Assembly: GCF_035285525.1 (NCBI RefSeq)
Contig: NZ_JAYKGW010000042.1
Location: 30,001 to 62,000, forward strand
DNA from: Okeania sp.
GTDB taxonomy: Bacteria; Cyanobacteriota; Cyanobacteriia; Cyanobacteriales; Microcoleaceae
Length of the DNA stretch: 32,000 nt
Reading direction: 5' to 3'
In this document: positions 3,767 to 32,000 of the stretch, one piece after another
Layout of the letters: each line of letters begins with the position of its first letter
How positions within the stretch are numbered: position 1 is the first letter of the stretch
The notes under the pieces: generated by a model
Told to the model about the DNA's origin: nothing
The model's database searches: none
What the model saw: only the letters and a program-made list of their open reading frames with translations
Translations under genes and position numbers: made by a program

Positions 3767-4050
3767 TACAGCAGATTCTATTTTTGTGGGGTACATCCAT
3801 TGAGAGGATTTAATGATTAAATCTATACTTCAATATACTTGGAATCTGCTTTAAGTTAATTCAAAATTCAACTTAATTTAGAAGTATTATTTAGACATTT
3901 CATCTCTAACCTCAAAACTGTTGCGCAATAGTTATAGTTTCTGATTAATTCAAAATTCAACTTAATTTAGAAGCGTTATTCAGACATTTTATCTACTCTT
4001 TTCCCGGCACAAGATTATAATTAGTAGTAGATTTATTTCTGAAAACACTG

Positions 4051-4092
4051 ATAACTCATAACTCATAACTCATAACTCATAACTCATAACTG
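4051..4092. repeat. heptamer tandem repeat (ATAACTC) x 6
   Basis: Direct reading. The array ends 2 nt before the ATG at 4095. Confidence 0.95.
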
Positions 4093-4094
4093 AA

Positions 4095-4358
4095 ATGGCA
4101 ACTCCAAACTCAAACAAATCTACTCCTAAAACTAAACTCGATCCAGAAAAATATGCTCGTCTCAAAGCTGAACTAGATGCACCTTATCGAGGATTTAGAA
4201 AATTTATCTATGTAACTTTTGGAGCTTCTGGTTTTATTGGAGCTTTTATTTCTTTTGCCAAAATTATTGCTGGTCAAAATATTGATTCTGCTCTTCCTAA
4301 TTTTGCCTTACAACTTGGAATTATCGCTTTGATGATTTGGTTGTTTCGTTTAGAATAA
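4095..4358 (+). CDS. small two-TM protein, DUF3493-like (cyanobacteria/plastid lineage)
   Basis: 87 aa with ATG start. It has a basic N-terminus, the motif APYRGFRKFIYVTFGASG and a second hydrophobic helix LQLGIIALMIWLF. Family name is from memory. Confidence 0.65.
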   Translation: MATPNSNKSTPKTKLDPEKYARLKAELDAPYRGFRKFIYVTFGASGFIGAFISFAKIIAGQNIDSALPNFALQLGIIALMIWLFRLE

Positions 4359-4390
4359 CTATCTGGGGTTTTAAATATAGCACTACTTAT

Positions 4391-4516
4391 GGTTGGCTGA
4401 AAAAGTCTTTTTCCGAAGGTAGGGAACACTTAACTGTTTAAACTATCTGCTACGGTCAAGTTTTCTGAGGGACAATAAACGAAAAACAAGATATGTCAAA
4501 AATTTACCATTTTGAC
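4391..4516 (+). repeat. GGAACAG/CTTAACTG element, copy 1
   Basis: GGCTGAAAAAGTCTTTTT..GGTAGGGAACACTTAACTG...ATCTGCTACGG.CAA.TTTTCTGA...TACCATTTTGA. It is homologous to 9671-9797, 9891-10007 and 12645-12745. Confidence 0.75.
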
Positions 4517-4548
4517 TTTTGATTTATACCAGTTTGATACATGTTTAC

Positions 4549-4697
4549 TACGAATCCCTCTATACCTATTCCCAGTTAAGTGTTCCCTGTTCCCTATTCC
4601 CAGTTAAGTGTTCCCTGTTCCCTGCAATATACGAATCCCTATTCCCTCCATACCTATTCCCAGTTAAGTGTTCCCAGTTAAGTGTTCCCTGTTCTCT
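4549..4697. repeat. cluster of CCCAGTTAAGTGTTCCCTGTTCCCT units
   Basis: Four copies of CAGTTAAGTGTTCCC lie inside two larger direct repeats, each beginning TACGAATCCCT (at 4549 and 4630). Confidence 0.85.
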
Positions 4698-4913
4698 AGC
4701 AATAAAAGTTGACATTTAGCAACAAGTCTATATATTTGGCCACAAAAATATAAAAAATAAAGAAAATATTACGAAATCAATGATCCCTATCAAGTTATTG
4801 TCAAATATTATGTATAAATCAATTGAGGTCAGCTAATATAAAGACCTTAAACTTTAATTGGGGTTAGCTTATATATAAACCCTAAACATAATAAAAAACC
4901 AATTTTCAACACC

Positions 4914-4951
4914 AAAATGCCTAGTTCTAAACTTATAGAACTAGGCATTTT
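4914..4951. terminator. bidirectional intrinsic-terminator-like hairpin
   Basis: A perfect 16-bp stem AAAATGCCTAGTTCTA (4914-4929) / TAGAACTAGGCATTTT (4936-4951) with a 6-nt loop. T-runs follow on both strands. It lies 93 nt downstream of the 5044-5274 ORF, at the end of the infB transcription direction. Confidence 0.7.
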
Positions 4952-5043
4952 GTCATTTACTACTCTTTTATATCTTGATTGTTAATCCTAACAAAAGAAT
5001 TTCAGAAATAAACTAGAAAATTGTATCTTATTTGACTGTTTTT

Positions 5044-5274
5044 TTAGTAAGCTAGTGTTTCTAGAGTTTCTCTTAAATACAAACTAACTTGTTTATCTAA
5101 AGGAATATTTTGCTCCTCATTACTATTAACTTTACGTTCTAATTGCCATCTCTGAAAACCTGAAGTTAAAGCGATCGCCTGCTTCAAACTATCCCAAGTT
5201 TCAAGTTCTGGTTCATTCTTGGCAATTACCTGAACTGAACTATTATTCCAAGAAGTAGCATTAAAATTATTCAT
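5044..5274 (-). CDS. small hypothetical protein downstream of infB
   Basis: 76 aa with ATG start. It contains a HIP1 site (5171-5178) and is not built from the interspersed repeats. A perfect 16-bp hairpin terminator follows 93 nt downstream. No family recognised. Confidence 0.5.
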   Translation of the reverse strand: MNNFNATSWNNSSVQVIAKNEPELETWDSLKQAIALTSGFQRWQLERKVNSNEEQNIPLDKQVSLYLRETLETLAY

Positions 5275-5465
5275 AACATTTACCTAATTTACAAAGGACA
5301 AACTTTTAGTGCTGCAGTTGCTGATATTTTAGCTCTCTTTTTAAAGATAACTCACTAAACATAAATCAGGCATTCTTATGAGACTATATTTGTCACCAAA
5401 TCTTGACTTTCAGAAATCATAAACACTACTTTAACTTGATATAACCCCCCCTAATACTCACGACT

Positions 5466-12644: not shown

Positions 12645-12745
12645 CTCAAAATGGTAGAGTTTTGACTCTAACTGCGAGAAAATTTGGCCGCAGTAGATAC
12701 TCTAAACTGTTCCCAGTTCAGTGTTCCCTATTCCCTATTCCCTAA
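12645..12745 (-). repeat. GGAACAG/CTTAACTG element, copy 4 (inverted)
   Basis: TCAAAATGGTAGAGTTTTGA...CGCAGTAGATACTCTAAACTGTTCCCAGTTCAGTGTTCCCTATTCCCTATTCCCTA. Its terminal (TTCCCTA)x3 supplies the TAG stop (12742-12744) of the 478-aa membrane protein gene. Confidence 0.8.
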
Positions 12746-14178
12746 TTAGATTTATTAGCTTTAAGTTGTAATTGTCTGGTTTCTTCTAAAATTTTCTCCA
12801 CATCTTCTTCACTCATCCCCATCACATAATTAATCTTTACTTCTTCAAGAAATGCTGATATTAAAGATTGAAGTTCATCTAAAGTATTTTCTTGTTGTAA
12901 TTCTTGACTTAGTTCTTTGCTGAAGTGTTGAACTAATTCTTCAGATAATTTTGTTCCCTCTGGATCTGCCATAGCAACTTTAACTGTTTCATAAGCATTT
13001 TGGGGTCCCTCGGTGACAATATTAGATAATTCTTTGACTAATCTTTCTGATAATTGCTTGGCTAAATTTTCTACTCCTGGTATTTGCTGAAGTGTCTGAA
13101 AAGCAGGTAATTCTTCAATGATTTTTTCTACGTTATAACGAATTAGAGCTTCTATCTCTGATTTAATTTCTGGTATTACTTTACAGACTGTTATTTCTAC
13201 TAATTTATTGGTAATCGCTTCAATTTCATTAATGTTATTTAGATCAATATAAGTTCGCTGTTGAGAGGAAAATATTCGCTTGGCTAATTCACCACTTGCT
13301 ACATCTTTTTGTAGCTGATTAATTATTTGTATTATGACTACTTCTGTTAATTCTTGAGCAATGGAAGCTAGAAAACCTCGGCTAGCTTGTGCCCTGATTG
13401 TTTCTAGGTCTATAATTTGAGCATTATTGAGGCGAATAGTAACAGGAATTATCCGCGATAATTGTAGAAATGGTAATAGTAAAAAAATATCATACCAACG
13501 CCATAGCATTGCTTCTTGCCAACTAACGCTAGGATAACGGCGACTAATTAAAAATGTTCTACCTAAAAATTCTAAGCCAAAGATAATAATAAAAGGGAAG
13601 TCAATTATGCCGAAATAATCAGTTAGTCCTCCACTTTCCCCAATCCCTCGATAATAATTTTTGACAATCAATGGTTGAATTTCTTTTTCAAACCATTCAC
13701 TTTCTTTATTCCATCCATTTGCTATTAAGTATTCTGCACTCCAAAAAGTTGTAAATGATCCTTTTGCAGAATCTTCTGGATTAGGAATTTTATCTCTAAT
13801 GCGATTTTTTATTTTTTCTAAAGAACCACTTTTATTAGCAACTGCAAAAGGATTTTGATTGATCATGTCTATAGAAAGTTCTTGTAGTTCTTCTAGTTGT
13901 TTTTTTACTTCTAAAGAATCAAAACCTGTAGAAATTTTTGTTTTTAATTCTGTAAAACTATTTAGATATTTTTCTGTATCTCGATTAGGTCTAATTCCTT
14001 TGATAGGGTCGTATATTTTTGTGAGACTAGGGACATAATCAAAATAGAAATCTCGGAAAGTAATATAGCTGATATTAAATAGCACTAGGGTAAAATTTAC
14101 TAGGGCTAAAAGTGCCATTATTTTTTCCAGTATTGGTACTTTGCGATTTTTCCGGCGGATATGTCTTGTAGTTACCAT
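12742..14178 (-). CDS. conserved hypothetical membrane protein with a coiled-coil-like C-terminal half
   Basis: 478 aa with ATG start. It has several hydrophobic helices (LALVNFTLVLFNISYI, FPFIIIFGLEFLG, YDIFLLLPFL) and a long, complex, non-repeat sequence. No family recognised. Confidence 0.75.
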   Translation of the reverse strand: MVTTRHIRRKNRKVPILEKIMALLALVNFTLVLFNISYITFRDFYFDYVPSLTKIYDPIKGIRPNRDTEKYLNSFTELKTKISTGFDSLEVKKQLEELQELSIDMINQNPFAVANKSGSLEKIKNRIRDKIPNPEDSAKGSFTTFWSAEYLIANGWNKESEWFEKEIQPLIVKNYYRGIGESGGLTDYFGIIDFPFIIIFGLEFLGRTFLISRRYPSVSWQEAMLWRWYDIFLLLPFLQLSRIIPVTIRLNNAQIIDLETIRAQASRGFLASIAQELTEVVIIQIINQLQKDVASGELAKRIFSSQQRTYIDLNNINEIEAITNKLVEITVCKVIPEIKSEIEALIRYNVEKIIEELPAFQTLQQIPGVENLAKQLSERLVKELSNIVTEGPQNAYETVKVAMADPEGTKLSEELVQHFSKELSQELQQENTLDELQSLISAFLEEVKINYVMGMSEEDVEKILEETRQLQLKANKSN

Positions 14179-15781: not shown

Positions 15782-15892
15782 GTTAGGTTTGTTTGAGGTT
15801 TAAGTCCTAAATTTTACCAAAAAAATGGGTTGAAAGGTAAACATTTTATAATTAATAATTAACAATTAATAATTAATAATTAATAATTAATT

Positions 15893-15992
15893 AGCCAAAA
15901 ATGAGGTATAAAGCCTCCTCTTTTAAGGGCATGAAAAAATATTTAACTCAGTATTTCAAGCTTCCGAGTTTAGTCGGAGGTTCACTCTCTAC
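15893..15992 (-). repeat. TAAA-hairpin interspersed element, copy
   Basis: AGCCAAAAATGAGGTATAAAGCCTCC...CAGTATTTCAAG CTTCCGAG-TTTA-GTCGGAGG TTCACTCTCTACT. It is preceded by the AT-only block TAATTAATAATTAACAATTAATAATTA, which also precedes the copy at 22946. Confidence 0.85.
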
Positions 15993-16144
15993 TTATAACT
16001 GAAATTACCTCTTATTATTAAAGAATAGGGTTGGCTAAAAATAGTTTTTTTCTTTATGAATGGATAAGCTTTATACTTTTATTTTTCGGTAATTATTTAG
16101 GGTTTGCTGATTTATCGGGAACCGTAAAAGTCTTTTTGCATTTG

Positions 16145-16165
16145 GTAGGGAGTAGGGAGTAGGGA
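16145..16165. repeat. heptamer tandem repeat (TAGGGAG) x 3
   Basis: Direct reading. It is the same unit, in reverse complement, as the array at 24665-24692. Confidence 0.9.
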
Positions 16166-16992
16166 GTAAACCCAACCCTAAGTTAGGAGGGATGGGAGTT
16201 ATCAAGGAAAAGGAATTAGTTGTAAGAATTGTCTCTTAATTTTTCTACTCTTGGGTAAGCCTTTTCATGCTAACTTTTTTCACCTTTTTGACCTAAAAGC
16301 TGGTACTTTTTCCTGACAAATAAGTTGCTAAAAACTTTATCTGTTAATACTTTCATATTTCCATACGCAAGCCGTATTTAGCTATTAGCTATGAACTATC
16401 AGTTATGAGCTATTGCCTTGAATTTTAGATAAAAGCTTTATTAATTATTGACCTATAACAATATGGAATAATTTGTGAGAAGAAACTTTAGGGGTTTGGT
16501 TTCCAAATCTCTTGGTGTTTGGGTTTGGAGACCAAACCAGGCTAACGAATAACCATGTCCTTTGTAAATTTCCTATTGTTTATAGCCTAATTATTAATGG
16601 TTAATTCTGGATTACTACCTCTTACCTATACCCTAATTCTTAACTATGAACTTTAGTAGCGATCGCTCATAAAGATAAGAAAATTTTCAACAATAAAGTT
16701 CCAATTAAAAGTCTTTCTGGTCAGTAGGTTAAGTACAAAAAAACTAAAAAATTTTAGATATCAGAAGTATCTAAACTGAATGGAAAGATTAATCTCAATT
16801 TGTAAGTGTTCAGCTATCAGCAATAAAAACCTCAATCTTAAAGAGGAGATTTAAGCGAAATATAGACTTAAAAACTGGCTTTTGTAGATAAGATTTAATT
16901 CTGAATAATGAAACGCTATATCAAAAACTAAAAGTAATAACTGAGTTGCGCAGTTACGACCCAGAAAGGTAGCTTATATATGACGGCTTTTT

Positions 16993-17019
16993 GCGCAGCA
17001 TTACCCAGGAAATGCTTAC
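16993..17019. repeat. GCATT..AATGC hairpin motif copy
   Basis: GCGCAGCATTACCCAGGAAATGCTTAC ends on the base adjacent to the stop codon (17020-17022) of the orphan ORF. Confidence 0.6.
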
Positions 17020-17991: not shown

Positions 17992-18427
17992 GTTGAGTTT
18001 GAGAGCAAAGTTTTATCAATTAAGACTTGCTGAAAAAGTATTTTTAAGAAAATAGGGTGATGGGGAGTAAATTTTTTTTGTCTAAACTATTGCCGAAAAT
18101 GCGCTCCTTTTTAATTTTTTCGGGAACCGTGCATGAATAGCTCAAACAACCAAACCTTTTTCCACCCTAAAAAGACTAAAAAATTGCTCAATAAACATTT
18201 TCCTATTTAATTAGCAAGTCCTAATTAAATAGGAATTGATTTTGACTATAAAAGCCAAGTTCAAAGTCTATATTAACTTAAAAAAATCCGGACATTTTGA
18301 AGATAGTTGCTGTTTTTTGACAACTCCCTTAGTTGCTTAAAATTTAGAATCAGTGTCTCAAATATTAATTTATTTTTTCATAGCAAGACGCTATTTTTTG
18401 TAAAATTTGAAAATATTAAACATCATC

Positions 18428-20185
18428 ATGGAATCTACTATTGAAAAACTGAAAAGTAAATTTGACAAAGCTTTAATTACTGCTTTTGGTCAAGATTTAG
18501 CAGGTAAAAATCCCTTGCTTGTTCCTGCAAGTAATCCCAAATTTGGAGATTATCAATGCAATTTAGCAATGTCTTTAGCTAAAAAATTAAAAGATAAACC
18601 AAGAGCGATCGCTACTCAAATTATCAACAATCTTGACATTACCGATTTTTGTCTACCTCCAGAAATTGCCGGACCTGGCTTTATTAATATTACCCTGAAA
18701 CCAGAATATATTCAAACCTGTTTAGAAATAATAATTAAGGATGAACGACTGAATATTTCTCTAGCTCAAAATCCACAAAGAGTTGTGATAGATTTTTCTA
18801 GTCCTAATATTGCTAAAGAAATGCACGTTGGGCATTTAAGATCGACAATTATTGGAGATGCTTTGGCGAGGGTATTAGAATTTCAGGGACATGATGTATT
18901 AAGACTAAATCATGTGGGAGACTGGGGTACTCAGTTTGGGATGTTAATTACTTATTTAAGGGAGGTTTTTCCGGAAGCTTTAAAGACTGCTGATGTTTTA
19001 GATATAGGAGATTTAGTTACTTTTTATAAGCAGTCAAAAAAACGGTTTGATGAGGATGAAGATTTTAAGGAAAGGTCGAGAAAAGAAGTAGTAAGTTTAC
19101 AAGCTGGTGCTGAGGATAGTCGTTTTGCTTGGCAACTTTTATGTAATCAATCTCGACGAGAATTTCAGGTTATTTATGACTTACTTGATATTAGTTTAAA
19201 TGAGCGAGGAGAGTCTTTTTATAATTCTATGTTACCTGGAATTATAGAGGAGTTAAATAAGTTAGGTTTATTGGAGGAAAGTGATGGTGCTAAATGTGTA
19301 TTTTTAGAAGGATTTACTAATAAGGAAGGTGAGCGTTTACCTTTAATTGTACAGAAGTCTGATGGTGGTTATAATTATGCTACAACTGATTTAGCTGCTT
19401 TAGTTCATCGCATAGAAAAAGAGGGGGCAAACCGATTAATTTATGTTACTGATTCTGGTCAAGGTAATCATTTTGCTCAAGTTTGGCAAGTGGCAAAAAA
19501 GGCTGATTGGATACCAGAAAATATAGAGGTTGTTCATGTTCCTTTTGGTTTGGTTTTGGGAGAAGATGGGAAAAAATTAAAGACTCGTTCTGGAGAAACA
19601 GTGAGGTTGAAAGATTTATTAGATGAGGCGATAAATAGAGCAAGGAATGATTTGGAAAAAAGGTTAAAAGAGGAAAATCGTTCTGAGAGTGAGGAGTTTA
19701 TTAAAAATGCTGCTCAAGTTGTTGGTTTAAGTGCGGTTAAATATGCAGATTTGAGTCAAAATCGAAATAGTAATTATGTGTTTAGTTTCGATAAAATGTT
19801 GGCTTTGCAGGGTAATACTGCTCCTTATTTATTATACGCTTATGTGCGGGTTCAAGGTATTGCTCGGAAGGGAGAAATTGATTTTGAAAAGTTGAGAAAT
19901 GATGCCAAAATTATTTTGCAAGATGAGCCAGAGTTGGTGTTAGGAAAACATTTATTACAGTTGAATGAAGTATTAAATATGGTGGCTATTGAATTATTGC
20001 CTAATCGTCTTTGTGAGTATTTATATGAGTTGAGTGAAAAGTTTAATAAGTTCTTTGAAAATTGTCCGGTTTTGAAGTCGGAAGAACCTGTGCGTACTTC
20101 TCGGTTATTGTTGTGTGATGTAACAGCTCGAACTTTAAAGTTGGGGTTGTCTTTATTAGGAATTTCTGTTTTAGAAAGAATGTAA
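18428..20185 (+). CDS. argS: arginine--tRNA ligase
   Basis: 585 aa from ATG 18428; the ORF track starts at TTG 18407. It has the class I HIGH-type motif ([14 protein letters not shown]) and typical ArgS blocks ([10 protein letters not shown], the anticodon-binding C-terminus ending LGISVLERM). A HIP1 site is at 18605-18612. Confidence 0.95.
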
Positions 20186-20189
20186 TTTT

Positions 20190-20270
20190 TACCGAAAAAA
20201 TTGGGGATAAAGCTTCCCTCAAAAAGGGGATGAAACAAATATTCGATTCAGTATTTCAAGCCTCTGATTT
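20190..20270 (-). repeat. TAAA-hairpin interspersed element, truncated copy
   Basis: TACCGAAAAAATTGGGGATAAAGCTTCCCTCAAAAAGGGGATGAAAC...CAGTATTTCAAGCCTCTGA. It begins 5 nt after the argS stop. The hairpin arm is replaced and it is followed by (CTGATAA)x2. Confidence 0.75.
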
Positions 20271-20917
20271 TCCTAGGTCATGCTGCGCAAATAGACAGAG
20301 ATACTGATAACTGATAACTGAAATGACCTCTATTTAACTTTTTTTTCGGTGGGAAAAAGTCAAAAAGTGAGTATTTTGAGATACAGAATTTTCCCTTGCT
20401 ATACCAGTTCCCATCTATTATTACTATACTTGAGGAATACTTCAGTCATCAAATAATTAACACAAACCAAATTATTTTTTGCCAATTTTAGCTAAGTTAA
20501 TGTGAATTTTTCTGATGTTTACTTCTTTTCTTGCTCCCCTACTCCCCTGCTCAATCAAATTTAGAAAACTTTTTGAGAAATGGTATTATGAGGTACTCCT
20601 CAGTAGGAGCATCTTTGTACTTCATAAAAGCTGATGAGCAATGCTTATCTCTTCTATAATTTTCTGTTCCTACTACAGATGTTGCATGACGTCTCTACCT
20701 CCTCCCTACCTCAACAAAAAAACTTTTCATAAGCAAACTCTATTTAAGGAGGGAAAATTTTAATATTGCATTTTTCTAATCTATGAGGTATAGTGTTAAA
20801 CCAACGTTGTTCCTCTTATAGTCATTCTGGTTTAGACTGAGACAATAATTTCTTACTGTTAAAAGGTTTCAGCTAAAAAAATGTTTCATTCTTATTCAGA
20901 ATAACTATAATTTATAA

Positions 20918-21147
20918 GAAACCCGGTTTCAACTTACAAGGTAAGCATTCAGCCCTTAACAGTCAGCAATCAGCTATTTATTTTAGTTTGAAATGAAAGC
21001 TTTATTAATTGAGATCAATTTAGTTTGGCTATCAAAACTGACTTTGAAGACTACACTCATTTAGAGCAACTCCGTAATTTTAGATAATGTTTGCTGAGTG
21101 CTGATGGCTAATAGCTGAATGTTTACCTTACAAGAAACCGGGTTTCT
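20918..21147. mobile_element. GTAAGCA-TIR MITE family, full copy with extended inverted ends
   Basis: The left end is AGAAACCCGGTTTCAACTTACAAGGTAAGCATTCAGC and the right end is GCTGAATGTTTACCTTACAAGAAACCGGGTTTCT. The internal blocks GAAATGAAAGCTTTATTAATT and CTATCAAAACTGACTTTGAAG are shared with other copies. It lies 114 nt upstream of the receiver gene start. Confidence 0.8.
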
Positions 21148-21260
21148 GAAGGTCTGGGTTTTTCAGTTATCAGTTATTCAGAGTCTTTTTGTTGAGACAT
21201 CTAATACTGAAGCACAAGACAAGTTAAACAATTTTAAATCCATAGTTTTACTTTATTGTT

Positions 21261-21704
21261 ATGTCTAAAAAGAAAGTTTTAATCGTAGATGACTGCGAAA
21301 TAATCAGAAAACAATGTTCTCGTATTCTCATCAAGATGGGATTTAATGTTAAATTAGCAAGTAATGGTTTAGAAGCAATAGAACAAGTAAAACTATACCA
21401 TCCTGATGTAGTAATTTTAGATATTATTATGCCAGAAATGAATGGATATCAAGTTTGTCGTCAAATCAAATCTCATCCTCAAACTAAGAATATATCTGTA
21501 ATTTTTTGTTCTAGTAAATGTTCAGAAGTTGATATTTATTGGGGTATGAAACAAGGTGCTGATGGCTATATTAGTAAGCCTGTAAAAAAGGATAAGTTAA
21601 TTACATTAATGTCAAGATTTAGTGGTTATAAAAATGAGATTAAAGAATATAGCGATCAGTCTCTTTATCAGGAAGGACGTATTCAGATTTTACCTAGTGT
21701 TTAG
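21261..21704 (+). CDS. single-domain CheY-like response regulator receiver
   Basis: 147 aa. It has the acidic pocket VDDCE, the phospho-acceptor context VVILDIIMPEMNG, and the conserved Ser/Lys positions (FCSSK, YISKP). Confidence 0.85.
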   Translation: MSKKKVLIVDDCEIIRKQCSRILIKMGFNVKLASNGLEAIEQVKLYHPDVVILDIIMPEMNGYQVCRQIKSHPQTKNISVIFCSSKCSEVDIYWGMKQGADGYISKPVKKDKLITLMSRFSGYKNEIKEYSDQSLYQEGRIQILPSV

Positions 21705-21742: not shown

Positions 21743-22648
21743 CTAAAAACCTAAATTTTGAGAAATTACTTCTAATAGAAATAAACCTGCTACAGAATTT
21801 CCTTGTTGGTTAAGATGAGGACTATAGGAAACAATTACTCCTGTTCCAGGAACTATTCCCAAAACAATTCCACTAACACTAGATTTGGTGGGAATTTTTA
21901 TTTTTATAGCATAATTAATTGAGGCTTCATATAAACCACAAGTAGTCATTAATTTTTGCACAGTTAAACAGTATTTTTGGCATTCAGGATGAGGTGCATT
22001 TACTAATAACATTCCGAGATTAGCTACATCGAATATCTTAGCAGATAAACAACAGATTTGATTATAAGTATCTAAACTAATTTCTGCTTCTTTTATACAG
22101 CCAGATTCTACTAATTTTTGAGCTATAGCTTGATTCTTTTGATTAGGTAAAGAACGAACCGAAGCCAACATATTTTCATCTAAAAATAATTGACAATTTC
22201 CATAGTTATTCAACCAACAACAAAAATTTTCACATCTTTCTATAGCAGTATTTCCTGGTAATAAAGATGATAAAGCGATCGCTCCACTATTAATCATCGG
22301 ATTTCGCGGCCATCCCTCATCAGTTTCTAATTGTTCTAAAGAATTAAAAGGTTTTTCTGAAGGTTCTTGACCAACTTTTTTAAATACAAATTCATTGCCA
22401 AATTTAGATAATAAATAGAATAACAGAAATGGTTTAATCACACTCATTAAAGGAACTTTGGTTTCCACATCCCCTAATGATATAATTTGATTATCAATAC
22501 TTTGCAAGACAACTGCAAAATTATTAGAGTTAGCTTCAGCAAGTAAAGGGATATAAGTAGGTAGTGTACCTGATTTACTTTTAGCTAATGTTTGTTTTAC
22601 CCATTTTGTTAATTCCTGTTCGTTAATTTCTGATAAACTTTTAAACAT
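21743..22648 (-). CDS. glsA: glutaminase A
   Basis: I prefer ATG 22648 (MFKSLSEINE...). Motifs are LPTYIPLLA, LMSVIKPF and NPMINSGAI. The 22 extra N-terminal codons in the ORF track (to TTG 22714) are encoded by a heptamer repeat array. A HIP1 site is at 22275-22282. Confidence 0.88.
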   Translation of the reverse strand: MFKSLSEINEQELTKWVKQTLAKSKSGTLPTYIPLLAEANSNNFAVVLQSIDNQIISLGDVETKVPLMSVIKPFLLFYLLSKFGNEFVFKKVGQEPSEKPFNSLEQLETDEGWPRNPMINSGAIALSSLLPGNTAIERCENFCCWLNNYGNCQLFLDENMLASVRSLPNQKNQAIAQKLVESGCIKEAEISLDTYNQICCLSAKIFDVANLGMLLVNAPHPECQKYCLTVQKLMTTCGLYEASINYAIKIKIPTKSSVSGIVLGIVPGTGVIVSYSPHLNQQGNSVAGLFLLEVISQNLGF

Positions 22649-22660
22649 AAAAATAGTAAA

Positions 22661-22702
22661 AGGAATAAGGAATAAGGTAGAAGGTAGAAGGTATAAGGTA
22701 GA
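22661..22702. repeat. heptamer tandem repeat (AGGAATA/AGGTAGA) x 6
   Basis: Direct reading, 13 nt upstream of the preferred glsA ATG (22648, minus strand). Confidence 0.9.
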
Positions 22703-22834
22703 AACTTTGAACAAAAAGGAATAAATGATAGAAATAACTATCTAAAATTAATTGAAGCAGCTATTTTAATCATTCAGCCATCAGCTATAAGCTAACAGCT
22801 TTGAATTAAGTGGTTTTCCAAAATAGATTTCCTA

Positions 22835-23439: not shown

Positions 23440-24120
23440 ATGAAAAAACTAATAGTAATTACAGGGGTAAGTAAAGGTTTAGGTAGAGCAATGACTGATG
23501 AATTTATTAATTTAGGTCATACCGTTATAGGTTGCGCTCGTTCTCAATCTACTATAGAAAATTTAACTAATAAATATCCTCATTCACATCAGTTTAGTTG
23601 TGTCAATGTAGCAGATGAAAATTCTGTGCAAGAGTGGGCAAGTAAAACATTAACTAATTATTCACCGCCAGATTTATTAATCAATAATGCAGGTATAATT
23701 AATCAACCAGCACATATTTGGGAAGTTGATAGTGAAGAATTTTCCCAATTAATTGATATTAATATTAAAGGTGTGGTAAATGTGATACGTCATTTTGTCC
23801 CAGCTATGATTTCTAGGAGAAGTGGTATTATTGTTAATTTTAGTTCTGGGTGGGGACGTTCTACTTCTCCACAAGTTGGACCATATTGTGCTTCTAAGTG
23901 GGCAATAGAAGGTTTAACTCGTGCTTTAGCTCAGGAGTTACCGTTAGGAATGGCTGCTATTCCTCTTAATCCAGGAATTATTCATACTGATATGTTGGAT
24001 ATTTGTTTTGGAGAGGATGCAAAGTCTTTTTCCTCTGTTAAGTCTTGGGTAAAAAGAGCTGTTCCTTTTTTGTTGAAATTAAAACCCCAGGATAATGGGA
24101 TACCTTTGACTGTATCTTAA
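23440..24120 (+). CDS. short-chain dehydrogenase/reductase (SDR) family oxidoreductase
   Basis: 226 aa. It has the cofactor motif ITGVSKGLG, NNAG, and the catalytic S...YCASK triad context. Confidence 0.9.
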   Translation: MKKLIVITGVSKGLGRAMTDEFINLGHTVIGCARSQSTIENLTNKYPHSHQFSCVNVADENSVQEWASKTLTNYSPPDLLINNAGIINQPAHIWEVDSEEFSQLIDINIKGVVNVIRHFVPAMISRRSGIIVNFSSGWGRSTSPQVGPYCASKWAIEGLTRALAQELPLGMAAIPLNPGIIHTDMLDICFGEDAKSFSSVKSWVKRAVPFLLKLKPQDNGIPLTVS

Positions 24121-24664: not shown

Positions 24665-24692
24665 CTACTCCCTACTCCCTACTTCCTACTCC
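24665..24692. repeat. heptamer tandem repeat (CTACTCC) x 4
   Basis: Direct reading. On the minus strand it reads (GGAGTAG)n and encodes the last residues (..GVGSRE) and the TAG stop of the Amt-PAS-cyclase ORF. Confidence 0.9.
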
Positions 24693-27600
24693 CTTTCCTT
24701 GCAAAATATAAGCCTTCATTTTTCCCTTACCCTTTATATCAATGAATCCTCGTTCTGTAAATAAAAATTTGTGCTGCAAAATCCGATAAGTATTCTCTGT
24801 AACTTGGATTAATCCTGGTATGCCATGAGATTCCATGCGACTAGCAATATTTACGGTATCACCCCATAGGTCGTAGATAAATTTCTTACGTCCAATTACA
24901 CCAGCTACTACGGGGCCAGTATTAATACCAATCCGAATCCGAAAATCTCGTTGATGCTCATTAGTAAAATGTTCTACTTCTTTTAATATATCTAGAGCCA
25001 TTAAAGCGATCGCTTCGGTATGATTTTTCATTGGTTGAGGCAACCCACCGACAACCATATAAGCATCGCCAATAGTTTTAATTTTCTCTAAATTATACTT
25101 TTCTGCTAATAAATCAAACCTGGAAAAAATCTCATTTAACCAATAAACTAATTGCTCAGGATGAACGGAACTTGCTAACTCAGTAAAGCCTACTAAGTCT
25201 GCAAATAAAACTGTAACTTCGGCAAAGTCTTCTGCAATAATTTCTTGATTTTCTTTTAATTTATCAGCAATAGGTTTAGGGAAAATATTTAATAGTAATT
25301 TTTCTGACTTTTCCTGTTCTAAAAGTAAAGCTTGTTCTGTTTTTTTTCTTTCAGTTATATCACGACAAAGAGCTAAAATTAAATTACTATTACCTGCTTG
25401 TAATAAACCCCGACGTATTTCTACTGGAAAAGTTTTACCATTTTGGCATTTGTGTATTTTTTGTATAGTTATCGGTAAGCCAGGAATTAATTCTTGCCAC
25501 TTTTGCTCAATTTCTTCTGATAAATTTACCTCAATATCTTGTATATAAAGATTCAATAATTCTGCACGAGTATATCCTAAACTTTGAGAAGCAATTTGAT
25601 TGACATCAATAATTTTTCCTTGCAAATCGTGAATAATAAAAGCATCTGCTGCTTGTTCCATAATAGCTCTAAATTTTTCCTCACTTTCTCGCAAAGCTGC
25701 TTGTGCTAATTTCCTTTCAGTTATGTCTCGTATGGCAGTTACTTTATGTTGATTTCCATGATAAAAAAATTTTTTTGCTTCTATTTCTATGGGAAAAGTA
25801 GAGCGGTCTTTTCTAAGTCCAAATACTTCATAAGGTTTCTCATATCCAGAACTCAAATTTTGCCGTACTAAGTCTTGATATTTTGAGTCTATTAATTCTA
25901 ATCCATTCATGCCTATCATTTCTGATAGTTCATATTGAAACATTTGCAAAGCTGCACTATTTGCATCAACTATTTCTCCTAGTTCGTGAATAATAATTGC
26001 CTCAAAAGTTGCTGTAGATAAACTCCTAAATCTTTTTTCGTTTTCTCGAAGTTTTACTTCTGCTTTTTTTCTTTGAGAAATGTCTCTAAAAGTTCCGGTG
26101 TAAAATTTTATTTGATTTAATTTGGCTTCTCTAATAGCAATTTCCATAGGAAATAAAGAACCATCTTTGCGAATACCAACTAACTCGTAAAGATTTCCTG
26201 TCTCAGCAATATTAGATATCAAAAATTCTATATAATATTTTTTTTGATTGCTTTTTTTTTCTGCCTCTAAATCTGTTTGAATATCTGCTGAATTTGACTC
26301 TGCTAAATGAAGAAAATTTGGAAAATAAGACTGCCAGTTTTCCGGTTTAATATCCTCATTATTAAATCTATAATAAACATCTCCAATTTCTTGATTTGGA
26401 GAGAATATAAAACTTGGATAAACCCAGAAGTTTAATGGTTCTAATATTGATTTATTTACAGAAGGAAATAAATCATGACCGTTGATTTTTTCCATTGTTA
26501 ATGGATTAATAGTAAAATCAAGTATTTTAACAACAGGGATTCCTACTAATTCTTCAGACTTATAACCAAATATTTTCTCAACGCTAGGATTTGCACTAAT
26601 AATTTCTAGTCCTGATTTACTAAAAGTTATAATTCCATCTTTAGCAACCTTAATAATAGCATCATTTCTGGCAGTAACTTCTTCCAAAGCATCCATAACC
26701 TGATTATATCTTTCTGCAATTTGACCTACTTCTGTAAAAGGTTCTACAGGCACTCTTAAACTTAAATCTTGGTTACGAGCTTGAGAATTCATTACTTCAA
26801 AAAAATCTAATATTTCGGTTTTAGCATTGTGTTCAGAAACATTTAAACCAATATACTCATCTTCTCTAGAAACTCGGAATAAAAAAAACTTATTTGTAAT
26901 TAATAAAATTGGATATACAACACAAAATCCTAATATAAAAGCAGTACAAATTCCTAATAATTGAACAGTTAATTGTTGACTAAAACTAAGACCAGTATCT
27001 AATACTTCCCTCTTAGCAAATAAAGCTACTGCTAAAGTACCCCAAATACCCGCACCAAGATGAACTGGAATAGCTCCGACAGCATCATCAATCTGAATTT
27101 TTTCTAAAGCGTGCCCGACCACAATACTAACTATGCTACCAATAGCACCAATAACCACCGCAGAAAAAGCTGTAACTGCATGACAACTAGCTGTAATAGC
27201 AACGAGACCAGCTAAAGTTCCATTAATCAGTAGTTCAGCAGTGGGGATGCCAACAATATACCAACTAATCCCAAGAGTAACCATCATTCCTGCTACACTA
27301 GCAAGAACTGTATTGACAATAATATCAGCTACTTGTTCATTCAAGACTAGGGTGCTGCCACCATTAAACCCAAACCAACCAAACCAAATTAACATAGCTC
27401 CCAAAACTGATAGAGGCAAATTAGAACCATGAATTTTTTGCGGTGGGCGATCAGGAGGAAATCTACCAGTACGAGGTCCAATAACGAATAAAGCGGCCAA
27501 AGAAACCCAACCCCCAATACTATGAACAACTGTGGAACCTGCGAAGTCAATAAAACCACGTTGTCCTAACCAACCTGTTGATATACCTGCATTAACTCCA

Positions 27601-28283
27601 TTCCAAACCCAATGACCAAATATGGGGTAAATAAAACCGGAAACTAGGAAGGTAATAAATAGATAGGCCGCAAATTTCATTCGTTCAGCTACAGCGCCAG
27701 AAACAATAGTTGTTGCTGTGCCACAGAACATGACTTGGAATAGAAATAAAGCGATATCAAAAGGTTGCAGTTCAGTTCCCAAGAAGAAATTGGTATGGCC
27801 AATTAATCCACTATAAGATGCCCCAAACATAAAGGCAAACCCAAAAGCCCAAAAACAGGCAACTGAAACACCAAAATCGGTTAAGTTTTTAATAGCAACG
27901 TTAATACTATTTTTTGACCTAGTAAGTCCGGATTCTAAACACATAAATCCAGGCTGCATGAGAAATACTAATCCAGAGCAAAGTAATATCCACAAAATAT
28001 CAATTGTTTGATATGTAAGTTCAGATTCTGAGGTTAATATATTATTGTTAAATTTGGATTTATTTTTTCTTTTAATAACAGTTTGGGGATTATAGTATAA
28101 ATTTGTGGATTTAATTAAATATTCTTCTGGTGAAAGTTGAGATTTTTTCCATTCTTTGACTTCTTTTGTATTAGTTATTTGCTGATAATTATTTGTATGT
28201 TTATTGATTGGCGACCCTTGTAAAATGGTTAATGTTAGAGTCAGAAAGAATATAATAATTCCTAAAATATATTTTCGAGGCAT
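24672..28283 (-). CDS. Amt ammonium-transporter domain fused to three PAS modules and a class III adenylate/guanylate cyclase domain
   Basis: A single uninterrupted 1203-aa ORF. aa 1-23 form a signal/TM segment. aa 93-486 form the Amt domain (LMQPGFMCLESG, DFAGSTVVH, WFGFNGGS, DDAVGAIPVH, and the Amt-type C-terminus RVSREDEYIGLNVSEHN). aa 535-985 form PAS/PAC modules, each ending in an RDI(S/T)(Q/E)RK coiled-coil linker. aa 1018-1195 form the cyclase domain (VLFADLVGFT, KTIGDAYM, YDLWGDTVNIASRME). A HIP1 site is at 25006-25013. Confidence 0.92.
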   Translation of the reverse strand: MPRKYILGIIIFFLTLTLTILQGSPINKHTNNYQQITNTKEVKEWKKSQLSPEEYLIKSTNLYYNPQTVIKRKNKSKFNNNILTSESELTYQTIDILWILLCSGLVFLMQPGFMCLESGLTRSKNSINVAIKNLTDFGVSVACFWAFGFAFMFGASYSGLIGHTNFFLGTELQPFDIALFLFQVMFCGTATTIVSGAVAERMKFAAYLFITFLVSGFIYPIFGHWVWNGVNAGISTGWLGQRGFIDFAGSTVVHSIGGWVSLAALFVIGPRTGRFPPDRPPQKIHGSNLPLSVLGAMLIWFGWFGFNGGSTLVLNEQVADIIVNTVLASVAGMMVTLGISWYIVGIPTAELLINGTLAGLVAITASCHAVTAFSAVVIGAIGSIVSIVVGHALEKIQIDDAVGAIPVHLGAGIWGTLAVALFAKREVLDTGLSFSQQLTVQLLGICTAFILGFCVVYPILLITNKFFLFRVSREDEYIGLNVSEHNAKTEILDFFEVMNSQARNQDLSLRVPVEPFTEVGQIAERYNQVMDALEEVTARNDAIIKVAKDGIITFSKSGLEIISANPSVEKIFGYKSEELVGIPVVKILDFTINPLTMEKINGHDLFPSVNKSILEPLNFWVYPSFIFSPNQEIGDVYYRFNNEDIKPENWQSYFPNFLHLAESNSADIQTDLEAEKKSNQKKYYIEFLISNIAETGNLYELVGIRKDGSLFPMEIAIREAKLNQIKFYTGTFRDISQRKKAEVKLRENEKRFRSLSTATFEAIIIHELGEIVDANSAALQMFQYELSEMIGMNGLELIDSKYQDLVRQNLSSGYEKPYEVFGLRKDRSTFPIEIEAKKFFYHGNQHKVTAIRDITERKLAQAALRESEEKFRAIMEQAADAFIIHDLQGKIIDVNQIASQSLGYTRAELLNLYIQDIEVNLSEEIEQKWQELIPGLPITIQKIHKCQNGKTFPVEIRRGLLQAGNSNLILALCRDITERKKTEQALLLEQEKSEKLLLNIFPKPIADKLKENQEIIAEDFAEVTVLFADLVGFTELASSVHPEQLVYWLNEIFSRFDLLAEKYNLEKIKTIGDAYMVVGGLPQPMKNHTEAIALMALDILKEVEHFTNEHQRDFRIRIGINTGPVVAGVIGRKKFIYDLWGDTVNIASRMESHGIPGLIQVTENTYRILQHKFLFTERGFIDIKGKGKMKAYILQGKGVGSRE

Positions 28284-28979
28284 AGATACGGTTCCCGAAA
28301 AATCGGGGCTTTTTTTAGATATTTTTTAAGTTAATTTTGTGGTCAGGATTCAGCGGTTAGTTATTAGGTATCAGTTACTCAAAAAGTAGAGATAAAAAGT
28401 TGGAATTAGTGTGGAGAATACACAAGTCCTGATATTGAAGTAAGTTGGATAAATTCTCTGAGGATAAAGTTGATTATGTATCCGATATTTTTTACTTCAA
28501 TGGTAATAGAGAATATTGTTCCCAAAAGTAAAGATCGCCAGAGATTAAATGATTAAGAATAATGTATATAATATGTGATTTTACTTATGATGGGTCTAGT
28601 TTTTATGATGTAAAACTCTTGGTTCAAAGAGGTTTATATTACAAAATAAAGTGCTGTAGATTCAGCACTTTCCGTTATTATGAGAGATACAATCGGGGGC
28701 AAGATGCGCCCACTACAAAACTTTCACTATTTACCCTATACCTCATTTGTCCGAAATATGCTGTAAAACCTACTTATCAATATATCATATTGTTAGTCGA
28801 TATTTCTCACTTCAAAAGTAATATCAGACATTTTTTTAGGAAGAAATTTAATTAGAGGCTGAGTTATTAAGAATAAAGTTTATAGTTCCTATGTAGTATG
28901 TAATTTCCCTTAAGAATATCATATCTGTTAGTATTGATTGTGTAAAAGCCGACAAAACAGTTAACTGATAACTGAAAAA

Positions 28980-29173
28980 GGGGGGGCGGGTTTTTTTCAG
29001 TTGATGAACTTTTCTTAAATCCCTGGTGAAACCCGCTGAGGGGGCGGGTTTTTTTCAGTTGATGAACCTTTCTTAAATCCCTGGTGAAACCCGCCCCTAC
29101 ATTCCCTGGTGAAACCCGCCCCTACAGTCCCTGGGGAAACCCGCCCCTACATTCCCTGGGGAAACCCGCTTAG
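28980..29173 (+). repeat. compound tandem array built on the AAACCCGCCCCTAC motif
   Basis: There are two 58-nt units (GGGGCGGGTTTTTTTCAGTTGATGAAC.TTTCTTAAATCCCTGGTGAAACCCGC..). These are followed by 25-nt units CCCTGG(T/G)GAAACCCGCCCCTACA(T/G)T at 29079, 29104, 29129 and 29154 (the last is truncated). The array is flanked on both sides by (GATAACT)n. Confidence 0.9.
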
Positions 29174-29208
29174 TTATTTCAGGGCGATCACTACTTTTGG
29201 GAATCAAA

Positions 29209-29230
29209 GATAACTGATAACTGATAACTG
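29209..29230. repeat. heptamer tandem repeat (GATAACT) x 3
   Basis: Direct reading. Confidence 0.9.
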
Positions 29231-29272
29231 AAAAGCAATCAGCGATTTTAATACTTTTCGCTGATTGCTTTT
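29231..29272. terminator. 15-bp hairpin, candidate terminator of the PG-binding protein gene
   Basis: AAAAGCAATCAGCGA (29231-29245) / TCGCTGATTGCTTTT (29258-29272) with a 12-nt loop and a T-run at the 3' end on both strands. It lies 225 nt downstream of the stop at 29497. Confidence 0.5.
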
Positions 29273-29496
29273 CATGCCATTCTTATGTAAAGCTGCACAG
29301 AATTATTAACTTTTTAATTTATCTATAATTTTATCTGCAGTTATTTATAATAATCATTTATTCTATGCAACTTCATATTCAATTGGTATTATTAAAGTTG
29401 ACATATTTTGACTGGAATTATGGTCTGAAAATATCAAAAAATCAACTTCAGTATTTTTCTAATTTAAGCCGGAAATGCTAATAACTGAAATGACTT

Positions 29497-30447
29497 TTAA
29501 TTGTTACTAAAAGCTTCCCAGGTTTTTTCGTTAACTATTCCATCAATCTCTATTCCTTGAGATTTTTGAAATTCTTTGACTGCTGCTACAGTTTTCATGC
29601 CAAATATTCCGTCGATTGGTCCTGGATTAAAACCCATTGTTTCCAGACGAAGTTGTAAAGTTTTGACTTTAGACCCCCTGTCACCTTTAGCTAATATCTT
29701 GTCTGTTTCGACTACTTGGTTTTGCTTGGGAGTCGTTGCTTTTGCTATTTCAGGAGATGGTTGAGAAACTATCGGTGGTGTTTCTCTTTGTATAGGTAAA
29801 GCAGGAGCTATCGGTAATTCTTCTTTAAAAGGTGGGGGAGAAACTATCGGTGATTTTTCTTGAATAGGTGAACGAGAAACTATTGATGGCGTTTCTCTTT
29901 CCAGAGGTGAACGAGAGACCAATGAAGGTTTAGCTAGAGATGTCCAAGTAATTTCATCAACTATACCTGTGACAGTCAAACCCGCAGACTCTTGAAAATC
30001 TTTTACTGTTTTTGTTGTCCGGGCACCAAATACACTATCTATAGTACCTGGATCAAAACCTCTTGCTTGCAAACGTCTTTGTACTGCCCAGACTTCAGCA
30101 CCTCGATCGCCTTCTGATATATTCTTTTGGTTTGTTTGTTTTTGAGGAACTCCAGAATAGAAAGGTTTAGAGAATAATTTAGTTTGAGTAGGTTGCTCAG
30201 AAAATCTAGAATTTCCAGGAATTAAAGGTATTAGAAAATTTTGATTTTTGGGTTTTTCTGAGAACTTAGTTTTGATTCTGTCTGTTTCACTTAAGGTAAA
30301 ATTTTTAGATTTTAATTGACTAATTAAGTTTTCTTCTTCTTCTTTAGTTAAAGACTCTGTTTTATTAGAAGCGATCGCTCTGTCGAAGTTTAAGTTAAAC
30401 AGGGCAGCTACACTTAATAGAGTCGTAATAGTAGGAACACGCATCAT
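29497..30447 (-). CDS. secreted protein with two peptidoglycan-binding (PG_binding_1-like) domains
   Basis: 316 aa. It has a signal-like N-terminus (MMRVPTITTLLSVAALF). Two copies of the GDRG..V..LQ.RL...GF.PG.IDG.FG..T..AV..FQ motif occur at aa 113-170 and 255-312, separated by a Pro/Ser-rich repeat linker. A HIP1 site is at 30371-30378. Confidence 0.85.
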   Translation of the reverse strand: MMRVPTITTLLSVAALFNLNFDRAIASNKTESLTKEEEENLISQLKSKNFTLSETDRIKTKFSEKPKNQNFLIPLIPGNSRFSEQPTQTKLFSKPFYSGVPQKQTNQKNISEGDRGAEVWAVQRRLQARGFDPGTIDSVFGARTTKTVKDFQESAGLTVTGIVDEITWTSLAKPSLVSRSPLERETPSIVSRSPIQEKSPIVSPPPFKEELPIAPALPIQRETPPIVSQPSPEIAKATTPKQNQVVETDKILAKGDRGSKVKTLQLRLETMGFNPGPIDGIFGMKTVAAVKEFQKSQGIEIDGIVNEKTWEAFSNN

Positions 30448-31469: not shown

Positions 31470-32000
31470 TCAAGCAATAATTGCAAAATTAAGATTATAT
31501 ATATTGCTATATTTATCTTGAATGTAACTAATAAAAGGCTCAATACTTAAAGATTTACCTGTCACTTGATTTATTAATTCATTAGCAGTATACTTACGAC
31601 CATGTTGATAAATATTTTGTTTTAACAATTGACGTAGAAGAGTAAAATTACCTCGTTCAATACCAAAAGTAACTTCCGGATCAAATTTAACTATTGCTTC
31701 ATAAATTTGAGCTGCGATTAAATTCCCTAAAGCATAACCTTGAAACATTCCGCCAATCATTTCGCCATACCAATGTACATCTTGCATTACCCCTTCACTA
31801 TCATTAGCAGGAACAATTCCTAAATCTTTTTTATAACTTTCATTCCAAGCTTCAGGCAAATCTTTAACACTTAATTTACCCTCCAACATAGCTAACTCTA
31901 AATTAAATCTAATCATTACATGAAGATTGTATGTCACCTCATCAGCATCAGTACGAATAGGTGACTTTACCACCTTATTAATAGCTTGATGAAACTCGGA
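31470..32000 (-). CDS. M32 carboxypeptidase (carboxypeptidase Taq family), C-terminal part; 5' end beyond the window
   Basis: The frame stays open from 31973 to the window edge (translation SEFHQAINKVVKSPIRTDADE...). C-terminal blocks MQDVHWYGEMIGGMFQGYALGNL and GRKY match the M32 family from memory. Confidence 0.8.
   Translation of the reverse strand, partial: SEFHQAINKVVKSPIRTDADEVTYNLHVMIRFNLELAMLEGKLSVKDLPEAWNESYKKDLGIVPANDSEGVMQDVHWYGEMIGGMFQGYALGNLIAAQIYEAIVKFDPEVTFGIERGNFTLLRQLLKQNIYQHGRKYTANELINQVTGKSLSIEPFISYIQDKYSNIYNLNFAIIA

Follow-up and report, generated by a model that had tools for sequence, protein, structure and literature searches.

The gene at positions 24672-28283 of a 32,000-nucleotide stretch of an Okeania sp. 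genome (contig NZ_JAYKGW010000042.1; the whole stretch is called the window below) is annotated as an ammonium transporter, and the question it raises is whether its product transports ammonium or senses it. The encoded protein joins an ammonium transporter (Amt) domain to a HAMP-like linker, three PAS domains and a class III nucleotide cyclase on a single chain. Its architecture, its signature and catalytic residues, their conservation and its homology to two characterised receptors are matters of observation. By analogy with those receptors, the reading favoured here, with moderate confidence, is that the protein is a sensor-type Amt (AmR), an ammonium receptor whose output is cyclic AMP (cAMP). 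The class of sensor Amts was defined only recently; its two characterised members signal through a histidine kinase in one case and a diguanylate cyclase in the other. With Amt-cyclases, cAMP would become the third output of the class, reached by a HAMP-PAS-transducer relay of greater complexity. The carriers are ecologically important marine filamentous cyanobacteria, including Trichodesmium, and also Leptospira.

Gene and domain architecture

A single uninterrupted open reading frame (ORF) on the minus strand, 24672..28283, runs from an ATG start through 1203 amino acids (aa) to the stop codon. The plus-strand reading of the same interval contains many stop codons, and no second ORF of at least 80 aa overlaps it. 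The protein is a 100% match to the NCBI entry 'ammonium transporter [Okeania sp.]' (P0001), which is the only annotation there. A preliminary description of this DNA, made from the letters alone, had proposed an uninterrupted 1203-aa frame with four parts. The frame is as described and lies on the minus strand, a detail that the description omitted, and the four-part architecture is borne out by profile searches that recover the Amt, PAS and cyclase domains, by residue checks and by an AlphaFold2 (AF2) structure model. A frameshift or gene split is excluded, as the identical NCBI protein and 26 further clusters from several genera share the same colinear architecture. The gene and its parts are as follows.

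24672..28283, minus strand: whole gene, 1203 aa, Amt(AmR)-HAMP-like-PAS x3-cyclase-transducer element (CTE)-class IIIa adenylate cyclase as predicted; stop codon included
28008..28283, minus strand: N-terminal extension, aa 1-92 (hydropathy; without Pfam match)
26820..28007, minus strand: Amt domain, aa 93-488, 11 predicted transmembrane helices (Pfam, TIGR00836, hydropathy)
27699..27956, minus strand: N1/N2 ammonium-receptor signature, aa 110-195 (exact match to the regular expression)
26646..26819, minus strand: HAMP-like helix-loop-helix linker, aa 489-546, AKTEILDFFEVM...RVPVEPFTEVGQIAERYNQVMDALEE (conservation, weak HAMP similarity, AF2)
26073..26645, minus strand: PAS1, split in two halves, aa 547-737 (PAS_9 after removal of the insertion; AF2)
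26217..26507, minus strand: PAS1 insertion, lineage-specific, aa 593-689 (orthologue alignment, AF2)
25710..26033, minus strand: PAS2, aa 751-858 (PAS_9 at aa 763-856; AF2 fold 762-853)
25344..25679, minus strand: PAS3, aa 869-980 (PAS 869-976, PAS_4 876-980; AF2 fold 881-975)
25236..25343, minus strand: signalling helix and presumed cyclase-transducer element (EKSEKLLLNIFPKPIADKLKEN), aa 981-1016 (AF2 helices; AC9 alignment)
24696..25235, minus strand: class IIIa cyclase catalytic domain, aa 1017-1196 (Pfam, PDB matches, fold superposition)

The N-terminal extension (aa 1-92) has no Pfam family match. Its hydropathy shows a hydrophobic signal or anchor segment at aa 6-24, which may be a cleaved signal peptide or a twelfth helix, followed by a variable hydrophilic stretch of ∼70 aa that is presumably periplasmic. 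The start Met and the hydrophobic segment are kept in the cyanobacterial orthologues and the remainder varies. The extension is missing from Leptospira P0031 and Coleofasciculus P0044 and is specific to the cyanobacterial clade.

The Amt domain and the ammonium-receptor signature

Classification of the Amt domain relies on profile matches and on alignment to proteins of solved structure. The Pfam family Ammonium_transp (PF00909) matches aa 97-488 over profile positions 1-397 of 399 (E 2.5e-120; 402 bits against a cut-off of 23.2), and the NCBIfam model TIGR00836 'amt' scores 415 bits against a cut-off of 343.3. Eleven hydrophobic segments between aa 96 and 462, found by hydropathy, are colinear with the structure of Sd-Amt1, which has 11 transmembrane helices. 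Escherichia coli AmtB is 30% identical to the domain. In the alignment of the two, W227, D246, H254, S310 and H408 correspond to AmtB W148, D160, H168, S219 and H318, and the Phe gate is formed by F186 and F306 (AmtB F107 and F215). The preliminary description had mapped these pore residues to AmtB, and its mapping is exact, with D246, H254, H408, W225, W227 and S310 all in place. The Trp/Ser recruitment site, the Phe gate, the Asp and the twin His residues also align to their Sd-Amt1 equivalents.

The part of the earlier comparison that does not stand is the choice of AmtB as comparator. The top PDB relatives of the Amt domain are the two characterised ammonium receptors, Sd-Amt1 (8qj3; E 3e-113) and Ks-Amt5 (6eu6; E 4e-90), and the assimilatory transporters Af-Amt1 (E 3e-59) and E. 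coli AmtB (E ∼1e-32) score lower. Pflüger et al. 2024 (PMC11152129) defined a receptor subclass of Amt proteins by two buried NH4+ sites, N1 and N2, and proposed the signature QX6EX15NX2D[F/T]X54-60TX2[S/T]. This AmR signature is matched exactly at aa 110-195 as Q110-X6-E117-X15-N133-X2-D136-F137-X54-T192-X2-S195. Outside the signature itself, the AmR-linked residues are K132 and Y207, which form the switch, and N354 at the exit constriction. The equivalences listed here come from the Sd-Amt1 alignment, and the roles are those stated in PMC11152129.

Q110, Sd-Amt1 Q22: N2 ligand in the ammonium-free state
F113 and E117, Sd-Amt1 F25 and E29: open side path to N1/N2; the Glu is an N1 ligand
K132, Sd-Amt1 K44: switch Lys
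N133 and D136, Sd-Amt1 N45 and D48: N1/N2 ligands
T192 and S195, Sd-Amt1 T104 and S107: N1/N2 ligands
Y207, Sd-Amt1 Y119: switch Tyr
N354, Sd-Amt1 N269: narrows the cytoplasmic exit

All of the N1/N2 ligand, switch and exit residues are invariant among 13 orthologues, and the strict signature is present in 105 of 120 homologues. E. coli AmtB, used as the negative control, does not carry the signature; it has Tyr32 at the position of E117 and Ser263 at that of N354. Such Tyr/Glu and Ser/Asn substitutions separate assimilatory transporters from receptors (PMC11152129). With regard to membership of the AmR subclass, a cytoplasmic transducer enzyme is fused C-terminally in the same ORF. On its sequence, the Amt module is thus assigned to the sensor subclass and is not AmtB-like. 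The signature together with the switch residues makes the case for a sensor stronger than the retention of conduction residues, on which the preliminary description had relied.

The HAMP-like linker and the PAS region

The segment that follows the Amt domain (aa 489-546) is almost invariant among orthologues. The Pfam HAMP family (PF00672) matches its second half only (E 0.015; 16 bits against a cut-off of 25), and since this score lies under the cut-off the linker is named HAMP-like only. The linker is colinear with Sd-Amt1 residues 385-449, which include the HAMP domain, at a weak E-value of 0.016, and it also matches a HAMP-array kinase chimera (E 0.004). The AF2 model places a helix at 482-504, a loop, and a second helix at 518-546, with pLDDT values of 52-74. 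The 'helical linker' of the preliminary description (aa ∼490-535) is modelled as helical, in line with the proposal, and is more exactly a conserved HAMP-like element colinear with the HAMP domain of Sd-Amt1. The Amt domain and the linker are conserved jointly across proteins with cyclase, PP2C or histidine-kinase outputs, which is the pattern expected of a sensor cassette. The pair behaves as a portable cassette joined to several outputs.

The PAS region is recognised by Pfam as PAS_9 in three stretches, PAS at 869-976 and PAS_4 at 876-980, and AF2 models three PAS folds overall. PAS1 is interrupted. When aa 593-689 are excised, its two halves give a single full-length PAS_9 match (profile positions 2-103 of 103; E 7e-12), and in the AF2 model PAS strands flank the insertion, which sits after the Eα/Fα region and ahead of strand Gβ. 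Orthologues from Okeania, Dapis and Trichodesmium have the insertion, and a DIxPENWQ..FP motif within it is conserved among them. P0020 and P0021 lack the insertion, it differs in P0019 and P0025, and P0025 also has no PAS2. The rejoined PAS_9 match and the two orthologues without the insertion bear out the earlier account of three PAS modules with the first interrupted. The insertion is modelled at pLDDT below 50 for aa 606-673, with a long helix at 665-695; a whole-chain fold search was dominated by the cyclase domain and was uninformative on this segment. Reading of the sequence by eye found no LOV Cys motif in the PAS domains and no His at the position of the FixL haem ligand.

The cyclase domain

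The C-terminal domain matches Guanylate_cyc (PF00211) at aa 1017-1196 over profile positions 3-183 of 183 (E 3e-66; 223 bits). Its sequence relatives are of class IIIa: mammalian AC9, AC8 and AC5, in both their C1 and C2 halves, and mycobacterial Cya/Rv1625c, with E-values from 1e-61 to 1e-52. Superposition of the modelled domain on the catalytic domain of Rv1625c (7yz9) gives a TM score of 0.93, an rmsd of 1.8 Å and 46% identity. In the AC9 alignment, D1029 and D1073 fall on the metal-binding Asp residues of C1, K1069 and D1138 on the ATP-specifying Lys/Asp pair of C2, and N1145 and R1149, the transition-state pair, on the C2 Asn and Arg. The preliminary description had named D1073, K1069, D1138, N1145 and R1149 correctly; its D1028 is an Ala, and the metal-binding Asp of FADLVGFT is D1029. 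The six catalytic residues are invariant in the orthologues, and all three motifs are found in 72 of the 77 cyclase-bearing homologues. Because all six lie on one chain, the enzyme is predicted to be of the homodimeric type. The full-length match, the fold and the Lys/Asp pair agree with the adenylate-type class III cyclase first proposed, and the domain is predicted to be an active class IIIa cyclase, adenylate-specific by its Lys/Asp pair.

Two AF2 helices (977-1000 and 1003-1011) precede the catalytic domain. The segment EKSEKLLLNIFPKPIADKLKEN within this region is what we take to be the cyclase-transducer element of class IIIa/b cyclases; the transducer segment LLLNIFPKPIADKL aligns to both the pre-C1 and the pre-C2 segments of AC9. 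The transducer motif LLxN[ILV]xPxx[ILV]AxxL is present in 75 of the 77 cyclase-bearing homologues. The cytoplasmic layout of PAS, helix and cyclase gives long structural alignments with soluble guanylate cyclase.

Distribution of Amt-cyclase proteins

Okeania belongs to the Microcoleaceae, order Oscillatoriales. Distribution was counted over the best 120 database clusters with their precomputed Pfam domains, which fall into the following architectures.

Amt-PAS-cyclase, 27 of 120 clusters: Okeania, Dapis, Trichodesmium, Microcoleaceae, Oscillatoriaceae, Phormidium
Amt-cyclase (∼680 aa), 51 of 120 clusters: Leptospira, Turneriella, Ca. Parabeggiatoa, metagenomes
Amt-PAS-PP2C(SpoIIE), 16 of 120 clusters: for example Coleofasciculus and Geitlerinemataceae
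Amt-PAS(-GAF)-histidine kinase(-REC), 25 of 120 clusters: for example Spirulina, Oscillatoria, Aggregatilineales and Ca. Rokubacteria
P0017, 1 of 120 clusters: a partial Okeania sequence with the cyclase end missing

The full architecture is thus found in a cyanobacterial clade, and the shorter Amt-cyclase is widespread in Leptospiraceae. Amt-PAS-cyclase proteins are 1150-1220 aa long. Thirteen orthologues are colinear with the Okeania protein at 58-81% identity, across all domain junctions and at the start Met; the Trichodesmium orthologue (P0006) is 75% identical. The cassette of Amt, HAMP-like linker and PAS1 also occurs fused to PP2C/SpoIIE (P0044, P0047 and others), another uncharacterised output of sensor Amts.

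Comparison with known systems

The closest solved relative is Sd-Amt1 of Shewanella denitrificans (Amt-HAMP-GGDEF; 8qj3/8qj4/8qpf; PMC11152129), which is colinear with aa 97-486. The two share the N1/N2 ligands, the E29/K44/Y119 switch, the N269 constriction and the canonical pore residues. In both, a HAMP or HAMP-like element with weak sequence similarity stands at the same position after the Amt domain, and the output is a second-messenger cyclase that works, or is predicted to work, as a dimer below a trimeric sensor. Unlike Sd-Amt1, whose GGDEF diguanylate cyclase makes c-di-GMP, the Okeania protein ends in a class III adenylate cyclase with cAMP as its predicted product. It also has three PAS domains and a transducer element ahead of the output, and an additional N-terminal signal or anchor extension.

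Ks-Amt5 of 'Candidatus Kuenenia stuttgartiensis' (6eu6; PMC5764959) is the second-best solved relative and the example that the preliminary description had cited. It is likewise classed as AmR, and equivalent Glu, Asn, Asp and Thr residues make up its N1/N2 sites. In contrast with the Okeania protein, its histidine kinase is fused directly, without HAMP or PAS domains, and signals by phosphotransfer rather than by a diffusible nucleotide.

Among uncharacterised relatives, the Amt-cyclases of Leptospira, Turneriella and Ca. Parabeggiatoa (∼680 aa) are likewise annotated 'ammonium transporter'. The Leptospira protein shares the AmR-type Amt domain and linker at 56% identity (aa 92-541) and the transducer and cyclase at 59% (aa 975-1197), but proteins of this type lack the PAS domains and the N-terminal extension. 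Coleofasciculus P0044 (Amt-PAS-PP2C) is 68% identical over Amt, linker and PAS1 (aa 94-591). The cyanobacterial Amt-PAS-PP2C and Amt-PAS-histidine kinase relatives carry phosphatase or kinase outputs, not a nucleotide cyclase.

On the output side, the Rv1625c/Cya chains are 43-48% identical in the catalytic domain in fold matches and have the same six residues and a preceding transducer helix. In these proteins and in the mammalian membrane adenylate cyclases, the membrane part is a six-helix bundle of unclear ligand, not an Amt domain, and HAMP and PAS domains are absent. Soluble guanylate cyclase (H-NOX-PAS-coiled coil-cyclase) resembles the Okeania protein in layout without belonging to the same family; it differs in being heterodimeric, soluble, GTP-specific and NO-sensing. 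E. coli AmtB has the fold family and pore residues of the Okeania Amt domain but lacks the N1/N2 signature, has no fused domains and is partnered with GlnK.

Full-text literature searches found no paper on a fusion of Amt and class III cyclase in cyanobacteria or Leptospira, although Tremblay & Hallenbeck 2009 may list such proteins. This agrees with the earlier statement that an Amt-PAS-adenylate cyclase has not been characterised. Since the fusion is already present in databases as 'ammonium transporter' and is widespread, it is not categorically new. Within the known class of sensor Amts, the Amt-cyclase is an uncharacterised form whose output is new, with cAMP as its predicted product and a HAMP-PAS-transducer relay. 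Further Amt-based signalling systems have been expected to await discovery (PMC11152129).

Proposed mechanism and alternative explanations

If the protein is an ammonium receptor, it would form a trimer of the Amt type in the cytoplasmic membrane. NH4+ from outside the cell would pass the recruitment site (W227/S310), the Phe gate (F186/F306) and the twin His (H254/H408), and below the His pair it would be diverted into the N1/N2 sites (E117, N133, D136, T192, S195), as in Sd-Amt1 and Ks-Amt5, with N354 narrowing the cytoplasmic exit. Occupancy of the sites would rearrange E117, K132 and Y207 and shift the C-terminal end of the Amt domain. This movement would be relayed through the HAMP-like element, the helices that link the PAS domains and the cyclase-transducer element, and would change the pairing of two class IIIa catalytic domains, a pairing that would form two ATP sites and determine how fast cAMP is made. 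A second signal, of intracellular origin, probably acts on the output by way of the PAS domains. Ammonium is known to modulate the enzymes fused to Sd-Amt1 and Ks-Amt5 (PMC11152129, PMC5764959), and it is by analogy with them that we infer ammonium binding without net transport, coupling to the cyclase, the sign of the response (activation or inhibition) and the role and ligands of the PAS domains.

Several points weigh against this reading. The N1/N2 signature is also found in transporting plant AMT1 proteins; some of its bearers (At-AMT1;1-3, Le-AMT1;1) are characterised transporters, possibly with a dual function (PMC11152129), so the signature predicts an N1/N2 site and not the loss of transport. 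All pore residues are intact, which makes conduction possible. Three PAS domains stand between sensor and output, unlike in Sd-Amt1 (HAMP only) and Ks-Amt5 (direct fusion), so that other inputs may weaken or gate the ammonium signal. The trimeric sensor and the dimeric cyclase are mismatched, and the HAMP assignment lies under the Pfam cut-off (16 against 25 bits). The linkage to nitrogen-related genes described below is confined to the genus. No NtcA box (GTAN8TAC) lies upstream of the gene at 28284-29500, and the count of such boxes over the whole window is at chance level.

The alternative that survives best, while unlikely, takes up the first two of these points. The protein could be a transceptor, a working ammonium transporter that also signals, as has been proposed for plant AMT1 and fungal Mep2; cAMP would then report flux rather than occupancy of a site. 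Every conduction residue that such a protein needs is intact, and the plant bearers of the signature are a precedent for transport with a possible second role. What speaks for binding instead is N354, placed where N269 narrows the exit of Sd-Amt1 and where assimilatory Amts have Ser, and the fact that binding predominates over transport in the closest relatives, Sd-Amt1 and Ks-Amt5.

A further explanation, quite unlikely on present evidence, moves the input from the membrane to the cytoplasm. The cyclase would be driven through its PAS domains by redox state, O2, light or a metabolite, and the Amt domain would be an anchor or oligomerisation scaffold with little or no ammonium dependence of the output. 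Consistent with it are the placing of three intact PAS domains immediately ahead of the transducer element, the variation of PAS number and of the PAS1 insertion among lineages, and a PAS-helix-cyclase layout like that of soluble guanylate cyclase. However, a mere anchor would not be expected to keep the N1/N2 ligands, the switch residues and the linker invariant across genera. The PAS-less Leptospira proteins join the same Amt domain and linker directly to the cyclase, which suggests that a path from Amt to cyclase works without PAS domains, and no cofactor motif was recognised when the PAS domains were read by eye.

It is improbable that the cyclase makes cyclic GMP or another nucleotide, or that it is a catalytically dead dimerisation module. 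Pfam does not split adenylate from guanylate cyclases, and guanylate cyclases are among the sequence and structure matches, yet K1069 and D1138 align to the Lys/Asp pair of AC9 C2, the metal-binding Asp and the Asn/Arg residues are invariant, and the top bacterial match is the adenylate cyclase Rv1625c. Finally, an error of sequencing or assembly that joined two or three adjacent genes can be set aside almost entirely: no support for it was found beyond the contig coming from a draft or metagenome-type assembly, and the same colinear protein recurs in 27 independent clusters (Okeania, Dapis, Trichodesmium, Microcoleaceae, Phormidium), with orthologues colinear at 58-81% through the domain junctions.

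If ammonium does control cAMP through the proposed receptor, the protein would offer a direct connection, open to test, between fixed nitrogen outside the cell and a global second messenger; the organisms concerned are ones whose N2 fixation and bloom behaviour are governed by ammonium availability. It would also be a convenient system in which to study how a trimeric Amt drives a dimeric enzyme, with a simple cAMP read-out in an E. coli cya strain and the PAS-less Leptospira form as a natural minimal version. A more speculative proposal, put forward tentatively, is that the protein is the main gauge of external ammonium in the Okeania-Dapis-Trichodesmium group, that it makes cAMP only when the PAS domains are in a permissive state (redox, O2 or energy), and that it controls nitrogen-related behaviour, for example by switching off N2 fixation or by changing motility or colony formation. 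If so, an extracellular nutrient ion would for the first time be tied directly to cAMP by way of a repurposed transporter, and the protein would be a third, mechanistically distinct way of coupling a trimeric sensor to a dimeric enzyme.

Genomic context

The preliminary description had placed the gene in a likely diazotrophic lineage. The window contains no nif, glnB/glnK or CRP genes, and the sole basis for that claim is the kinship of Okeania with Trichodesmium. The neighbours of the Amt-cyclase gene are as follows.

31470-31973, minus strand: M32 carboxypeptidase, upstream side
29497-30447, minus strand: PG_binding protein, upstream side, ∼1.2 kb from the Amt-cyclase gene
23440-24120, plus strand: short-chain dehydrogenase (SDR), downstream side
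21743-22714, minus strand: glutaminase, downstream side
21261-21704, plus strand: orphan receiver domain (REC), downstream side
18407-20185, plus strand: ArgRS, downstream side

Beyond ArgRS lie the malic enzyme and rimP-nusA-infB genes. As the PG_binding gene is distant and the SDR gene is on the opposite strand, the Amt-cyclase gene is probably transcribed alone. Promoter and terminator scans returned background level only.

The glutaminase, an enzyme that releases ammonium, and the orphan REC gene lie 2-3 kb downstream of the Amt-cyclase gene. Synteny was assessed by exact-protein look-ups; a motif scan of contigs was dominated by the generic Amt motif WFGWFGFN and returned distant Amt genes and no cyanobacterial orthologues. 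The gene order is kept in Okeania SIO2C9 (L082), only its upstream part is kept in Dapis (L081), and none of it is kept in Phormidium (L083). A functional link of the Amt-cyclase to the glutaminase or the response regulator was considered and rejected, since the order is conserved in Okeania only; with the order lost outside the genus, the glutaminase linkage is probably genus-level synteny and no evidence of function.

The intergenic region upstream of the gene contains two adjoining tandem arrays at 28982-29169, one of a 58-bp unit repeated 1.9 times (98% match) and one of a 25-bp unit repeated 3.7 times (95% match). Their units are GC-rich and hairpin-forming (GGGGCGGGTTT...AAACCCGC) in surroundings of 33% GC, and one of them (29028-29052) scores as terminator-like. 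The arrays may be a cyanobacterial short repeat element.

Elsewhere in the window, a 478-aa ORF on the minus strand (12742-14178), between the malic enzyme gene and rimP, matches no Pfam family at E<=0.001. The intervals 3496-5465, 15782-17019 and 20239-21260 are without ORFs of at least 90 aa, a low coding density reminiscent of Trichodesmium-type genomes. At the left edge of the window, an ORF on the plus strand (8-526) encodes a GAF domain and is possibly the end of a larger signalling protein cut by the boundary.

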